From an uncultured candidate division Zixibacteria bacterium (lineage in GTDB: Bacteria > Zixibacteria > MSB-5A5 > GN15 > FEB-12), in the NCBI GenBank assembly GCA_963735035.1, contig CAVTJJ010000004.1, positions 256,001-320,000 of the forward strand: a stretch of DNA of 64,000 bases, read 5' to 3'. Numbering within the stretch: position 1 is the first letter of the stretch; every line of letters begins with the position of its first letter. This document shows, piece after piece, positions 1 through 55,686 of the stretch. The notes below the pieces were generated by a model. That model was not told where the DNA came from. It ran no database searches and saw only the letters and a program-made list of their open reading frames with translations. Position numbers and translations under genes: made by a program.

Positions 1-215
1 ATATAACCCGGAAAAATGTGCATAAGAAGCAGATTCTAATCAGAATATCTTAGACCGTATTAGACCACGAATCCTTTACGAAATAGTAGTCTATTCCGTG
101 TCAGAATAGTTGGATTTAGTGCTACTGTGTGACCGACAACTGCTTGTGTGACGAGTTGTGGGGAGAAGAACGTTGTACGAGCTGGCAGATGTGGGTATCT
201 GCCGAGCACTCTTCA

Positions 216-50996: not shown

Positions 50997-51329
50997 TTAG
51001 TCCTTAAACAGATCGTCGAAATTCTTCCGGCGCGATTCCTTGTTGTCTGTCCGCTGCCTGATGCCGCCCGCGCCCTTGACCACCTCGCGCACCTGGAAGA
51101 AATCACAGAAATTGGCTTTGTTCTTGTTCAGCACCGGATGATCGACATTCTCGCGACACTGGTGCCGTCGCGTGGGATCAAAATGCCGACAGCCGCGGCA
51201 GGTGCGAAGATCAGCGAGGCAGTTCTGGCACTGATCGTGCCGCGTGACACTGCCCTTGGAGCCGGACGGTCGCCCGCAACTCCAGCAGAGCAGACCTTCT
51301 TCTTTCAGTTCGCCGCCGTGTAAAGCCAT
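50997..51329 (-). CDS. Small Cys-rich conserved hypothetical protein
   Basis: CWSC, CQNC, CRGC..FDP, CRE, ANFCDFF; ends FDDLFKD. Confidence 0.7.
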   Translation of the reverse strand: MALHGGELKEEGLLCWSCGRPSGSKGSVTRHDQCQNCLADLRTCRGCRHFDPTRRHQCRENVDHPVLNKNKANFCDFFQVREVVKGAGGIRQRTDNKESRRKNFDDLFKD

Positions 51330-51427
51330 ACATAATTATACGCTGAATCACGGTGTTCGTCAAGCTTGATGGGATGGTATCTTTGCGACAGAAGCGATCG
51401 TAACGCCTTGAGGAATCCCACCCGTTG

Positions 51428-51609
51428 GGGAGTGTTGAAAAAGTCTCTTCCCCGTCATCGCGAGTCTCGACCGCGCTTCGCGGGCGAGATGTGGCGATCT
51501 CAAATGACACTGACACAACGAGCTTGAGATTGCCACGCTAAGCTGACCCGCCTCACGGCGTGCCATCTCCGCTCGCAATGACGATTAGACAGCCTTTTTC
51601 AAGACTCCC
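51428..51609 (-). mobile_element. MITE-like palindromic element nested in another repeat
   Basis: IRs GGGAGTGTTGAAAAAG / CTTTTTCAAGACTCCC around the inverted core. Confidence 0.7.
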
Positions 51610-51694
51610 GCTGGGTGGGGTACCGAAGAATTGGCGCAGACTAGGATTCTGCCCTACGAATCTGAGATAGTAGACACTTCTCACCAATTATCAC

Positions 51695-51723
51695 TTGACA
51701 CGACGCCCGCGTATAGTTATGCT
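51695..51723 (+). promoter_or_regulatory. Near-consensus sigma70 promoter
   Basis: TTGACA-N17-TATGCT. Confidence 0.7.
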
Positions 51724-51728
51724 TACGG

Positions 51729-52035
51729 TGCAGTTCACGCTGCACCGCCATACGATCACACATTCGACCTTGCACCTTGGGACTTTCAACTACACGCTCA
51801 CTAATCACGTGGGTCAGTTGTGTGGACCCTCACACCACCTGGACGGACTGGAACGCGTCAGGGGTCCGATTGCAGGCCCCGGTCGGACGGCCGGGAAACT
51901 TGACGTGTTAGAGTTCGGCTGGGGGAAATTCCTCACATTTGTTCGCCACGCTGCGACAGACACGGACGGTAGTATTACGTCCGTTGTGAGGGGGGCGCCT
52001 GCCCCGGTCTTTGCGCCGGGGCAGGTGTTCTGTTG
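51729..52035 (+). ncRNA. Candidate structured non-coding RNA, unassigned family
   Basis: Bounded by a promoter and a terminator hairpin; several nested helices with G-U pairs; no credible ORF. Confidence 0.55.
51995..52035 (+). terminator. Probable intrinsic terminator
   Basis: GCGCCTGCCCCGG/CCGGGGCAGGTGT stem followed by TCTGTT. Confidence 0.55.
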
Positions 52036-52070
52036 ATGTGCAGGTGAATTGTGCGGAAGATCATGCTTTC

Positions 52071-52367
52071 GTAGGGCAGAACCCGAGTCCGCCAAAGGCG
52101 GGCGAGCGGTTCTGCTACACTTCGACCCTTCGACATGCTCAGGGCTCAGTGTGACTTTGAAATGGCAGAATCACCCCACCGAGGCGGCGGGGGATTCTGC
52201 CCTACGTTAACTTAACAACATAAACCCGGCAGACGAGGACCCCCGATCAAGTCTAGGGCAGGCATCTGCCGGGCACAGTTATTGTCGATGCGGGCGTCAG
52301 GTCACACGCCCCGCTGAAGCGGGTCGCAGGACCCCCGATTAAGTCGGGGGCAAGCTCTGACGCAACC
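52071..52367. repeat. REP mosaic
   Basis: GTAGGGCAGAA..TTCTGCCCTAC pair, CCCTTCGACATGCTCAGGG, CATCTGCCGGGCAC, CCCCCGATTAAGTCGGGGG. Confidence 0.75.
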
Positions 52368-52390
52368 TGGCGGCACTGGGGCAACTCATC

Positions 52391-53638
52391 CTACGCGCCG
52401 TACTTGTCGATGATCTCCTGCTTCGACTTGCCAAGGATGTCGTACTTCTTGCCGACCTTACGGAAAGCGTCGAGCGCTTTGTCGAGATGATGAATCTCGT
52501 GACCGGCGGAGATCTGCGTGCGGATACGCGCCTGGCCTTGCGGCACCACCGGGAAGAAGAAGCCGATCGCGTAGATGCCCTCGGCGAACAAATCGCGCGA
52601 GATATCCTGTGAGAGCTTGGCGTTGAACAACATCACCGGCACGATCGGGGTATCGCCCTCTTTCAGAACGAAGCCGGCCTCCTCGAGACCTTTCCGCCAA
52701 TAGGCGGTGTTCTTCTCGAGTTTGTCGCGTCGCTCGGTACTCTTGGACAGAATATCCAGCACCCGGATAACACCGGAAACCACTACCGGCGCAATAGTAT
52801 TCGAAAACAGGTATGGCCGCGCTCTCTGGCGGCACATCTCGACCAGTTCGCGGCGTCCTGACACGCAGCCGCCCGACGCTCCACCAAGCGCCTTGCCGAA
52901 AGTAGTCGTGATGACATCGATCTTGCCCACCACGCCGTATTTCTCGTGCGTGCCGCGGCCGGTCTTGCCGATGAATCCACTGGAGTGGGAATCGTCTACA
53001 AACAGCATGGCGTCGTACTTATCACACAGTTCCACCATCTTGTCCAACTGCGCCGTGTCGCCGTCCATCGAGAACACGCCGTCAGTGATAACCATGCGGA
53101 CTCTGCGTCCGGCGTGAAGCTGCAATTTCTCTTCGAGATGCTCCATGTTGGCATGTTTGAACGTATCCTGCTCGGCGCTGCACAACCGCATGCCGTCGAT
53201 AATCGACGCATGCACGAGCCGGTCGGCGATCATCATGTCGTCTTTGGTGAGAACGGCCTCGAAGATACCGGCGTTGGCGTCCATGCATGACGGGAACAGA
53301 ATTGTGTCTTCGGTGCCGAGGAAAGCGGTTACTTTGCGTTCCAACTCACGATGTATATCCTGCGTGCCGCAGATAAAGCGTACCGATGACATGCCGTAGC
53401 CACGGCTGTCGAGGCCTTCGTGCGCTGCTTTGAGTACCTCGGGATGGCTGGACATGCCGAGATAGTTGTTGGCGCACATGTTGATTACTTTCTTCGGCGC
53501 GGCGCCGGTCGGAAATTCGACTTCGATATCCGCCGCCTGCGACGAATGTATGTACCGTTCCTGTTTGAACAGGCCGGCGTCCTGAATCCCCTTAAGTTGA
53601 TCTTGATAAATTGTGCGAACCTTATCGCTGTAGCCCAT
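52391..53638 (-). CDS. kbl: Glycine C-acetyltransferase (2-amino-3-ketobutyrate CoA ligase)
   Basis: CANNYLG, SSVRFICGTQ, HASIIDG, DDSH, TFGKALGG, RPYLFSN, ARIRTQ. Confidence 0.92.
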   Translation of the reverse strand: MGYSDKVRTIYQDQLKGIQDAGLFKQERYIHSSQAADIEVEFPTGAAPKKVINMCANNYLGMSSHPEVLKAAHEGLDSRGYGMSSVRFICGTQDIHRELERKVTAFLGTEDTILFPSCMDANAGIFEAVLTKDDMMIADRLVHASIIDGMRLCSAEQDTFKHANMEHLEEKLQLHAGRRVRMVITDGVFSMDGDTAQLDKMVELCDKYDAMLFVDDSHSSGFIGKTGRGTHEKYGVVGKIDVITTTFGKALGGASGGCVSGRRELVEMCRQRARPYLFSNTIAPVVVSGVIRVLDILSKSTERRDKLEKNTAYWRKGLEEAGFVLKEGDTPIVPVMLFNAKLSQDISRDLFAEGIYAIGFFFPVVPQGQARIRTQISAGHEIHHLDKALDAFRKVGKKYDILGKSKQEIIDKYGA

Positions 53639-53710
53639 ATTCGACTCCTAGGTTAGCTGCCACATCGCGAACCGGCCGAATCTTACCCGGCCGGTTAATC
53701 ACACCCGACG

Positions 53711-53956
53711 CTACTTGAGGAATTGCCGGACCAGCGCCACGATTTTGTTGACCGAATCAAATGCTTCGGGGGTGGCCTTCTCATCCGGAATGCTGATCTT
53801 GTACTTGTTCTCGAGGAACCGCTTCAGCGAAACCATGGAAAAAGAATCGACGATACCACCCGAGATCAGGGCCGTGTCGCAATCGATTTCTTCTTCTTCA
53901 TCCTCGAGATATTCGTTCTTTACATATTTCAGAACGGCTTGTTGCATTTCATCCAT
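53711..53956 (-). CDS. Acyl carrier protein
   Basis: Acidic, 81 aa; GGIVDSFSMV; FDSV. Confidence 0.9.
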   Translation of the reverse strand: MDEMQQAVLKYVKNEYLEDEEEEIDCDTALISGGIVDSFSMVSLKRFLENKYKISIPDEKATPEAFDSVNKIVALVRQFLK

Positions 53957-53982
53957 CGATACACCTGCTTCTATATTTGACG

Positions 53983-55686
53983 TTAATCATTTTCCAGTGT
54001 GGAAGTGTCGCCGATTTCCTCGCCCCATTCCTTGGCTCGCAACACTCGGCGCATGATCTTGCCGGAGCGGGTCTTGGGGAGCGACGGTACGTATTCAATC
54101 TCCTGCGGCATAGCCAGCGGGGAGAGTCTCTTGCGAATGAAGTTCATGATATCCAGTTCAAGATCGACACTCGCCTCAAAACCGGGCTTAAGTGTCACGA
54201 ACGCCTTCACCACTTCCATGTTGACTTCGTCCGGCTTGGCCACGACTGCCGATTCCGCCACTGACGGGTGTTCCAGCAGCGCCGATTCGACTTCGAACGG
54301 GCTGACCAGATGTCCGGCGGTGTTGATGATATCGTCATCGCGACCTGCGAACCAGAAGTAACCATCGGCGTCGATACTCGACCGGTCACCCGGCATGTAC
54401 CAGCCGTTCTTGAATTTAGCTTTGTAGGTAGCCTCGTTATTGCGATAGCCGCGCATCATCGCCGGCCATCCAGGTTGAAAGGCAATAAGGCCGATCCGCC
54501 CGGGATCAGTAATAGGTTCGTAGGTCTTGAGATCGAGCACGGTTGCCCCGATGCCGGGGAAGGCGCGCCCCATCGAACCCGGTTTCACTTTCATGCCGGG
54601 GAAATTCGTGATCATCATCGAGCCGGTCTCGGTCTGCCAATACGTATCATGGAACGGTAGGCCGAAGACACGCAGGGACCAATGCACCGCCTCGGCGTTG
54701 AGCGGCTCGCCCACACTGCATAGGTGGCGAAGTGATTTCATGTCGAACTTCTTGACGATCTCGTCACCGGCCTTCATCAAAGACCGGATTGCGGTCGGAG
54801 CCGAATACCAGACCGTCACACGATGCTTCTCAATGAATCGGTACCAGTTCTCCGCCGAGAATCCTACATCCTGCACGCATTGAGTGACGCCCATGGTGAA
54901 GGGTGCGATAATGCCGTACGATGTGCCCGTGACCCAGCCCGGATCGGCGGTGCACCAGTAGACGTCGTCGTCCTTCAGGTCAAGCACCCACTTCGCGGTC
55001 AGGAACTGTGATATGAGCGAGTAGTGTACGTGCTGTACGCCTTTCGGCTTACCGGTAGTGCCGGAGGTGTAGTGAATCACCGAGGGCGACTCGGCTTTGG
55101 TCGGATAGGCCGGGAAATTCTCAACCGGTTTGGCATCGGCGAGTGAGAAAGCAATCTCGCGATCTTTCAACTCTCTCTTGCCGTCGTGATCGACAATGAT
55201 GATGTGCTTGAGGAACGGCATTTGATCGAGAATGCGGCGCACTTTGCCGACATGCTTGCGCTGAGTCAATATGGCAGTTGCCTGAGCGTCTTCAAGGCGC
55301 ACGAAGAGCGAATCTTCACCGAAAGCCGAGAACAGCGGCTGTGCGACGGCGCCCATCTTCAGAATGCCGACAAAGCCCAGATACAGTTCCGGAATGCGGT
55401 CCATAAAAAGACAGACACGATCGCCCGGCTGGATGCCCAGATCGCGCAGATAGGCGGCGATAGTGTTGGTAGTGAGGCGAACATCGTTGTAAGTGTACCG
55501 CTTCTCTTCGGCGCCGGTACCTTCCCAGATAAGCGCCGGTTTGTCGGCTTTGCCCATCTGACAGACACGATCAGAGCAGTACCAGCCGATGTTGATGACA
55601 TCGCCCGCTTTGTAACCGAGTTCCTTTTCAGCGATATCCCAACTGAAATTGCGAGCCCGGTCTTCGTAGTTGCCAAAATTATTCAT
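53983..55686 (-). CDS. acsA: Acetate-CoA ligase (AcsA type)
   Basis: YTSGTTGKPKG, YWCTADPGWVTG, SVGEPLN, DTYWQTETG, PKTRSGKIMRR. Confidence 0.88.
   Translation of the reverse strand: MNNFGNYEDRARNFSWDIAEKELGYKAGDVINIGWYCSDRVCQMGKADKPALIWEGTGAEEKRYTYNDVRLTTNTIAAYLRDLGIQPGDRVCLFMDRIPELYLGFVGILKMGAVAQPLFSAFGEDSLFVRLEDAQATAILTQRKHVGKVRRILDQMPFLKHIIIVDHDGKRELKDREIAFSLADAKPVENFPAYPTKAESPSVIHYTSGTTGKPKGVQHVHYSLISQFLTAKWVLDLKDDDVYWCTADPGWVTGTSYGIIAPFTMGVTQCVQDVGFSAENWYRFIEKHRVTVWYSAPTAIRSLMKAGDEIVKKFDMKSLRHLCSVGEPLNAEAVHWSLRVFGLPFHDTYWQTETGSMMITNFPGMKVKPGSMGRAFPGIGATVLDLKTYEPITDPGRIGLIAFQPGWPAMMRGYRNNEATYKAKFKNGWYMPGDRSSIDADGYFWFAGRDDDIINTAGHLVSPFEVESALLEHPSVAESAVVAKPDEVNMEVVKAFVTLKPGFEASVDLELDIMNFIRKRLSPLAMPQEIEYVPSLPKTRSGKIMRRVLRAKEWGEEIGDTSTLEND

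Follow-up and report, generated by a model that had tools for sequence, protein, structure and literature searches.

A probable new family of stand-alone structured noncoding RNAs in one group of uncultured Zixibacteria

The window analyzed here is a stretch of 64,000 nucleotides (nt) from an uncultured candidate division Zixibacteria bacterium (assembly GCA_963735035.1, contig CAVTJJ010000004.1, positions 256,001 to 320,000, forward strand), and the element in question lies in an intergenic gap of 1.06 kb. This gap is flanked by two minus-strand genes, one encoding the small protein p110 (Table 1) and the other encoding a class I/II aminotransferase (52391-53638). Positions 51695-52036 of the plus strand run from a promoter to a terminal hairpin, and they very probably represent a genuine conserved noncoding RNA (ncRNA) gene of a new family, an estimate that covers the gene and its family status and excludes mechanism. 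An earlier note, made from the sequence alone, had proposed a stand-alone, ~300-nt structured plus-strand RNA without a known family at this place, and every refutation test that we ran supported that proposal.

The promoter read by the earlier note as TTGACA-17-TATGCT is present in the window and kept in all 12 members of the family described below. The RNA 5' end is predicted 6-8 nt past the -10 box, at the onset of the family motif UGNNGUUG, and the 3' end beyond the terminal hairpin and its U-rich tail. According to BLAST, the island 51670-52050 exists as one copy in the 3.6-Mb genome. Both flanks consist of multicopy segments (7-131 matches) resembling repetitive extragenic palindromic (REP) sequences or miniature inverted-repeat transposable elements (MITEs), with a peak of repeat density near 52250, where up to 131 short BLAST matches fall into a 20-nt bin. 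Thus, the RNA is distinct from the local REP families, as had been claimed, and the RNA gene of the window was kept intact while repeats invaded both flanks.

Table 1. Features of the RNA gene and its surroundings (positions in the window)
Feature	Position	Strand	Remarks
p110, Cys-rich protein of 110 amino acids	50997..51329	-	divergent from the RNA
REP/MITE-like multicopy repeats	51410..51665		context; between p110 and RNA promoter; 7-46 short BLAST matches per 20-nt bin, genome-wide
A/T-rich stretch ACCAATTATCAC	51683..51694	+	directly 5' of -35 box; A/T-rich in most of 10 aligned homologs; possible UP-like element
Sigma-70-type promoter	51695..51723	+	TTGACA 51695-51700, 17 nt, TATGCT 51718-51723; 10/12 consensus positions
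Predicted RNA, ~308 nt	51729..52036	+	both ends predicted from sequence
5' hairpin UGCAGU-UCAC-GCUGCA	51729..51744	+	P = 0.97 for longer form 51726-34/51739-47
5' C-rich motif CCGCCAUAC	51745..51753	+	family consensus AUCCCCGCCuUAC
Variable central domain	51754..51960	+	single-sequence fold of window RNA
Central domain: 5' sub-domain	51757-51825	+	
Central domain: CCCUCACA motif	51827-34	+	
Central domain: long arm	51835-51925	+	includes 11-bp helix 51852-62/51899-909
Central domain: second CCUCACA	51931-37	+	
Central domain: small hairpin	51938-60	+	bears semi-conserved ACGCUGCG motif
Hairpin 1: ACGGACG, 9-nt loop, CGUCCGU	51962..51984	+	stem 51962-68/51978-84, P = 0.97; position conserved in family
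G-run GAGGGGGG	51988..51995	+	between hairpin 1 and terminal hairpin
Terminal hairpin	51993..52030	+	16 bp, 51993-52008/52015-52030, 4 G-U, P = 0.99
Interrupted U-rich tail UGUUGA	52031..52036	+	U-rich in some members only
REP/MITE-like multicopy repeats	52050..52365		context; between RNA 3' end and convergent aminotransferase gene; at most 131 BLAST matches per bin

Folding of the plus strand (51725-52040) gave -145.1 kcal/mol (z = -4.43), a stability equaled by 0 of 100 dinucleotide shuffles; the corresponding values for the minus strand of the same segment were -118.3 kcal/mol (z = -1.85) and 5 of 100. As to individual helices, the helix 51852-62/51899-909 put forward in the earlier note (11 bp, 2 G-U, P = 0.99) is part of the minimum free energy (MFE) structure, as are both hairpins drawn inside a three-way junction, i.e., hairpin 1 and 51938-46/51953-60. 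The terminal stem was correctly placed as well, its length being 16 bp instead of the 13 bp first counted. Other proposed pairings proved to be alternatives only. More specifically, the MFE structure has 51864-66/51875-77 and 51878-84/51889-95 in place of GTCCGATTG/CGGTCGGAC, and joins 51809-14 to 51796-801 rather than 51809-15 to 51825-33. The closing pair of the junction, CCTCACA (51931-37) with TGTGAGG (51985-91), likewise gives way, TGTGAGGG pairing instead with another copy, CCCTCACA (51827-34); that is, UGUGAGGG (51985-92) has two candidate partners, CCCUCACA at 51827-34 (MFE, P = 0.67) or CCUCACA at 51931-37. Several of the helices first drawn are therefore in the MFE structure, and several central ones are mere alternatives that are unconserved in the family. 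An imperfect inverted repeat of 16-19 nt (51757-51775/52038-52053) encloses most of the window RNA. We regard the closing helix that it could form (51757-75/52038-53) as a chance match; it has no equivalent in the homolog L097, and its 3' arm touches or runs into the start of the downstream repeat (~52050).

Homologs in reference genomes were all missed by BLAST and by a covariance model built from the window sequence alone (R1), and were recovered by a synteny-guided search. BLAST of the island matched 0 of 40 relatives and, in 285 genomes of the phylum, gave only chance matches of 17-36 nt (best E = 0.011); R1 found 0 matches in 60 relatives. By the synteny route, 80 metagenome loci encoding relatives of p110 were collected and then searched. 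In one of these loci, L097, R1 gave a full-length match (E = 3.3e-4) whose place and strand correspond to those in the window, and BLAST aligned the same locus to the window over the promoter and the 5' part. L097 shares the -35 box of the window, has TATTCT as its -10 box, and carries the blocks CCGCCAUAC, CCCUCACA, CCGAUUGC, and UGAGGGGGG; its terminal hairpin is followed by U7, forming a canonical intrinsic terminator, and this canonical U7 tail was seen in L097 only. Iterations of nhmmer on the collected loci added L102, L100, L137, L132, and L072/L138. A model of the 3' module (R2) then hit 7 of the family's 108 genomes, that of the window among them; of 151 genomes sampled over the class, it hit 3 of 24 inside the family and 0 of 127 outside it. 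A re-trained model (R3) returned the same seven genomes plus one site, rejected below, in G002, a sister species in the genus of the window; applied to 80 p110 loci from reference genomes, it recovered two duplicates along with L207 and L208, two members that are new and more divergent.

In total, 12 distinct members were found, all in Zixibacteria metagenome-assembled genomes or metagenomes. R1, nhmmer, the R2 and R3 models, and a simple descriptor served as four independent routes to them. When applied to both strands of 195 loci (906 kb), this descriptor, which combines the promoter, a distance of 180-345 nt, the G-run, and a hairpin of at least 9 bp, retrieved the 12 members and nothing else; in the whole genome of the window it matched twice, one match being the true locus. 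The R2 and R3 genome searches scored 31-44 first-look candidates per genome under strict filters, and L207 and L208 score 24-26 bits. Given the limited candidates, the strict filters, and these low scores, the RNA probably occurs in more than 7 of the 108 genomes. No whole-genome search found the RNA in the other two genomes of the genus, G001 and G002. The sister species G002 retains the gap between p110 and the aminotransferase gene, without a homolog of the RNA there. An IS200-like Y1 transposase gene (PF01797), possibly a REP-associated tyrosine transposase, lies in this gap beside a short-chain dehydrogenase (SDR) gene (L071 1522-2001, minus strand). Two candidate sites in G002 were rejected: the R3 match on contig C20 (30 bits) consists of two terminator hairpins directly behind a coding frame and lacks both a G-run and a correctly spaced promoter, and the R2 match in the syntenic gap is weak (15 bits, E = 0.23) and on the wrong strand.

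The members are 231-328 nt long and share a set of elements. A promoter of the form TTGAC[N]-16..18-TAnnnT stands 230-340 nt 5' of the RNA 3' end in all 12, a pattern with only 482 sites on both strands of the whole genome of the window, and in most members a UGNNGUUG-like start follows ~6 nt past the -10 box. Each member has a C-run (consensus AUCCCCGCC) 9-24 nt from its predicted 5' end, and in each a G-run, 4-7 residues long, separates hairpin 1 from the terminal hairpin. A CAUACUGCG motif is semi-conserved. The loop of hairpin 1 is usually GUGUGCU, which is lacking in the window and L097. The terminal hairpin reads CCCGUCCCGG/CCGGGGCGGG across the family (GGCGGUUCCGG/CCGGAACCGCC in L207, GGCGGCCCCGG/CGGGGCCGCC in L208); in the window, its family core is GCCUGCCCCGG (51997-52007) paired with CCGGGGCAGGU (52016-52026). 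This hairpin is a probable terminator, and a simple terminator scan did not call the window tail as one. The 5' hairpin of the window RNA is partly retained in L097 and is absent as a family-wide feature.

Covariation was counted on a model-fitted alignment of the 12 sequences (A8), and such fitting to a structure favors pairing. In A8, standard pairs are formed in 94.4% of 231 cells, relative to a shuffled mean of 76.8%, and 14 of 20 pairs changed on both sides; neither value was reached in any of 500 shuffles, and slid controls were 41-52% paired. These margins are large despite the structure-fitted alignment. All nine stem pairs of hairpin 1 covary (91.9% of cells paired, 12 sequences), and 5 of 11 pairs of the terminal hairpin changed on both sides (96.2% of cells paired, 12 members). 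U-G wobbles in the terminal stem, present in 6 of 12 members at one pair, fit the plus strand only, and RNAalifold recovered the terminal hairpin from an independent MAFFT alignment. The homolog search and covariation analysis that the earlier note had named as a check thus gave 12 distinct members and two covarying 3' hairpins. Excess stability is a trait of the family too, since sense z is at or below -2 in 9 of 12 members and lies below antisense z in 11 of 12. No reading frame is conserved: comparison of the four longest frames from each of 10 members revealed no cross-sequence peptide match (blastp, E <= 1e-3).

Three further pairings were tried and rejected. A helix between the 3' strand of hairpin 1 and the G-run, suggested by RNAalifold on the 12 full-length RNAs, was 85% paired relative to a shuffled mean of 80.8%, a value reached by 28 of 500 shuffles (slid controls, 63-78% paired). 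A pseudoknot between the GUGUGCU loop and upstream GCACAC-like motifs was matched by 63 to 997 of 1000 mononucleotide shuffles in seven members, and a 5' UGCAGU/ACUGCG pairing shows uncompensated changes, by eye, in L100, G080, and L137.

The neighborhood of the RNA is conserved along with its sequence elements. In 10 of 12 members, p110 is a divergently oriented neighbor at most 2.5 kb from the RNA; in G072 it is on a separate contig, and in G124 the contig ends 258 nt 5' of the promoter. The gap between p110 and the promoter measures ~90-240 nt in five members (L097, L102, G080, L207, and L137), 365 nt, mostly inserted repeats, in the window, and 1.2-1.85 kb in four. In three of these four, an isocitrate/isopropylmalate dehydrogenase (Iso_dh) gene intervenes (L100 1409-2437, L138 2290-3327, L132 2906-3922 [+]); it lies on the strand of p110, and the RNA there is divergent from the Iso_dh-p110 pair. 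On the other side, at least 10 of 12 members have a convergent gene next to the RNA (SDR in five, aminotransferase in two, and BMC, HAD, and HprK in one each), with the terminal hairpin 13-150 nt from the stop codon of that gene in relatives. These arrangements lead us to conclude that the RNA gene stands alone, that its chromosomal place is old and conserved across at least six genera (g1, g14, g36, g40, g49, and g54), and that the RNA was repeatedly lost. In the window, the aminotransferase gene, of the alpha-oxoamine synthase type (PF00155), adjoins one for an AMP-binding acyl-activating enzyme (52391-55686, minus strand), and in the relatives' loci L138, L100, L207, L208, and L179 a short-chain dehydrogenase joins these two, a set that we presume to resemble bacterial sphingolipid or related lipid-synthesis genes.

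p110 itself matches no Pfam or NCBIfam family, and its atlas neighbors are hypothetical proteins. It ends in a conserved FDDLF(K/E)D tail and has eight (nearly) invariant Cys residues (C15, C18, C34, C37, C44, C47, C58, and C75); its AlphaFold model is poor (mean predicted local distance difference test score, 54.5). Its promoter, TTGACG-17-TATAAT, ends 6 nt before the ATG, so that its mRNA is probably leaderless. Of 41 relatives, 38 have p110, and genes resembling it occur as well in loci recorded as Treponema and Acidobacteriota. Being far more widespread than the RNA, p110 cannot depend on it.

We compared the RNA with known families using the 4227 covariance models of Rfam 15. There were no matches at the gathering score in the whole window, nor at E <= 10 in the region 51300-52450, and among nine homolog loci at E <= 1 no match fell on the RNA (one sub-threshold istR match lay outside it). 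ARAGORN reported nothing in 51300-52500. The note's exclusion of RNase P, transfer-messenger RNA (tmRNA), and signal recognition particle (SRP) RNA is borne out, as all three were located elsewhere in the genome above the cut-off (273.8, 183.7, and 72 bits, respectively). Its argument against a riboswitch also stands: the next gene is the minus-strand aminotransferase gene, and, as described above, at least 10 of 12 members have a convergent gene directly 3', where a riboswitch or 5' leader would have a co-oriented one. A full-text literature search found no account of ncRNAs in Zixibacteria. With its own promoter, noncoding body, and 3' stem-loop, all conserved among relatives, the promoter-to-hairpin unit has the makeup of a small RNA (sRNA) or other ncRNA gene: it is autonomous and noncoding, and neither cis-regulatory nor repetitive. 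The family is previously undescribed and so far confined to one group of uncultured Zixibacteria.

Some observations weigh against this conclusion or narrow it. The transcript and its ends are predicted from sequence only. The distribution is patchy (7 of 108 family genomes, missing from both other genomes of the genus), which speaks against a core function, and there are only 12 members, two of which (G124 and L207) are without excess stability. Pairwise identity over the full RNA is 50-68%, the central two thirds cannot be aligned, and the central structure is supported by single-sequence folding only. Even in the one close pair, the window and L097, the long arm and the CCGAUUGC motif are kept and the topology is rearranged, with the 3' strand of the 11-bp helix in L097 lying on the other side of a GC-rich tetraloop hairpin. 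The unalignable center and this rearranged arm indicate that the elaborate central fold is largely specific to the window copy. Furthermore, the C-run ranks as the top partner of the G-run in just 4 of 12 members, and a clamp between the two shows no covariation because both are invariant homopolymers; we keep this pairing as a candidate only. Finally, any protein partner is purely conjectural.

As to function, our best guess is that the product is a trans-acting regulatory RNA that binds protein or RNA. Transcription would start from its own promoter at ~51729 and proceed to ~52035, where the terminal hairpin would stop it and may end both convergent transcripts; the released RNA would then act in trans. 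A tentative and speculative form of this idea, to which we give a rather low probability, is a protein-binding or scaffolding RNA. Here, the 5' C-run, hairpin 1, the G-run, and the terminal hairpin would make up the core, the C-run and G-run would clamp the RNA ends together, the fast-evolving central arms would serve mainly as a stabilizing spacer, and the RNA would titrate or escort its protein partner. The only lead to such a partner is p110, which is widespread, zinc-ribbon-like, and divergently encoded, with eight conserved Cys residues and the FDDLF tail. On this basis, the RNA could be a subunit or dedicated partner of a ribonucleoprotein (RNP) with p110, or else the lineage's functional substitute for 6S RNA, either of which we consider a long shot; if true, an uncultured phylum would have a global regulatory RNP of a new class.

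Base pairing offers another, rather unlikely, account of the same conserved ends. C-rich sRNAs such as RsaE/RoxS pair with G-rich, Shine-Dalgarno-like sites, and the C-rich motif AUCCCCGCC, conserved and probably exposed near the 5' end, might be a seed for such sites in mRNAs, with the G-run as an intramolecular decoy. The presence of both runs in all 12 members, together with an individual promoter and a terminator-type 3' hairpin, is what such an sRNA would show; however, at 231-328 nt, the RNAs are several times the typical length of seed-type sRNAs and mostly tightly folded, and the C-run is predicted to be paired in several members.

Less probable still is that the transcript has no function and that the conservation concerns a strong divergent promoter region combined with a bidirectional terminator or insulator between convergent genes. 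The short distance of the terminal hairpin from the convergent stop codon in relatives, the fast evolution of the central domain, and the loss of the element in close relatives would be in keeping with this, but it leaves unexplained why all 12 members keep a near-consensus promoter 230-340 nt upstream, why hairpin 1 covaries while the G-run and the 5' C-run are invariant or conserved, and why excess stability spans the whole transcript. Moreover, the hairpin sequence is kept though the convergent gene varies (SDR, aminotransferase, BMC, HAD, or HprK).

That the RNA is a lineage-specific 6S-like or Ms1-like RNA binding RNA polymerase appears very improbable. The 6S model RF00013 found no 6S RNA in the genome of the window or across the family (108 genomes), which might leave the role vacant for a strongly promoted, stand-alone, highly structured RNA; however, this model recovered its controls in only 4-5 of 14 genomes, so its blank is weak evidence, and a blank across 108 genomes is a property of the lineage with little bearing on the window RNA. 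Against a 6S-like identity, the region has no Rfam match at E <= 10, and single-sequence predictions (MFE and centroid) fold the window RNA and its homologs into multi-branched structures instead of a rod with a central bubble. Their 3' end is an independent hairpin, not part of a closing stem, and the RNA is present in 7 of 108 genomes only, whereas 6S RNA is usually a core gene.

We see scarcely any room for an RNA of mobile-element origin, either a REP/MITE unit or a guide-type RNA of an IS200/IS605-like element. The window copy is indeed bracketed by multicopy REP-like repeats, and the same gap of the sister species holds the IS200-like Y1 transposase gene; yet the RNA has one copy per genome and the same chromosomal place in at least six genera. 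In addition, BLAST found no repeat matches at ten homolog loci besides the window, Pfam found no transposase in seven of these loci (a few selected frames only), and there is no match at E <= 10 to any family of Rfam, which should include the HEARO and IS605-type motifs. A small protein gene can practically be dismissed: a 113-codon open frame (51695-52036) coincides exactly with the interval reported for the RNA gene, but its TTG start is the -35 box itself, it has no Pfam match, the homologs' open frames share no peptide similarity, their indels are not multiples of three, and stem changes are compensatory.

We therefore return to a conserved ncRNA gene of a new family. Few structured ncRNAs of several hundred nt lack a known family, and orphan RNAs of similar size have turned out before to have new biochemistry; moreover, Zixibacteria is a phylum known from metagenomes only. 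The range of the present family is narrow and patchy, it is dispensable in close relatives, its core fold is not conserved, and its neighborhood is the sole functional clue. The outcome is a gene delimited by its promoter and terminator, a seed alignment of 12 members in which two helices covary, and a genomic anchor for enlarging the family, with p110 or Iso_dh on one side and SDR or aminotransferase on the other.

Among known systems, RsaE/RoxS are C-rich seed sRNAs that likewise have a conserved C-run, a 3' terminator hairpin, and their own promoter. In contrast to them, the window RNA is three times longer, its C-run may pair with an internal G-run, and there is no homology. 6S RNA (RF00013) and mycobacterial Ms1 are likewise noncoding, stand-alone, highly structured RNAs of 200-300 nt with a promoter of the abundant type; the window RNA differs from these in lacking a covariance-model match, in branching where they form a rod with a central bubble, in ending with an independent terminator hairpin, and in its patchy distribution. 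The raiA motif RNA, OLE, ROOL, and HEARO are families present in Rfam, whereas the window family has no Rfam 15 match; it comprises 12 members from one Zixibacteria family, conserves only its 5' and 3' modules, and offers less evidence for an intricate tertiary fold. Like the window RNA, they are stand-alone RNAs of a few hundred nt, lineage-restricted, with covariation-supported helices and a conserved neighborhood, and it is in this known class of orphan structured bacterial ncRNAs that the new family belongs.

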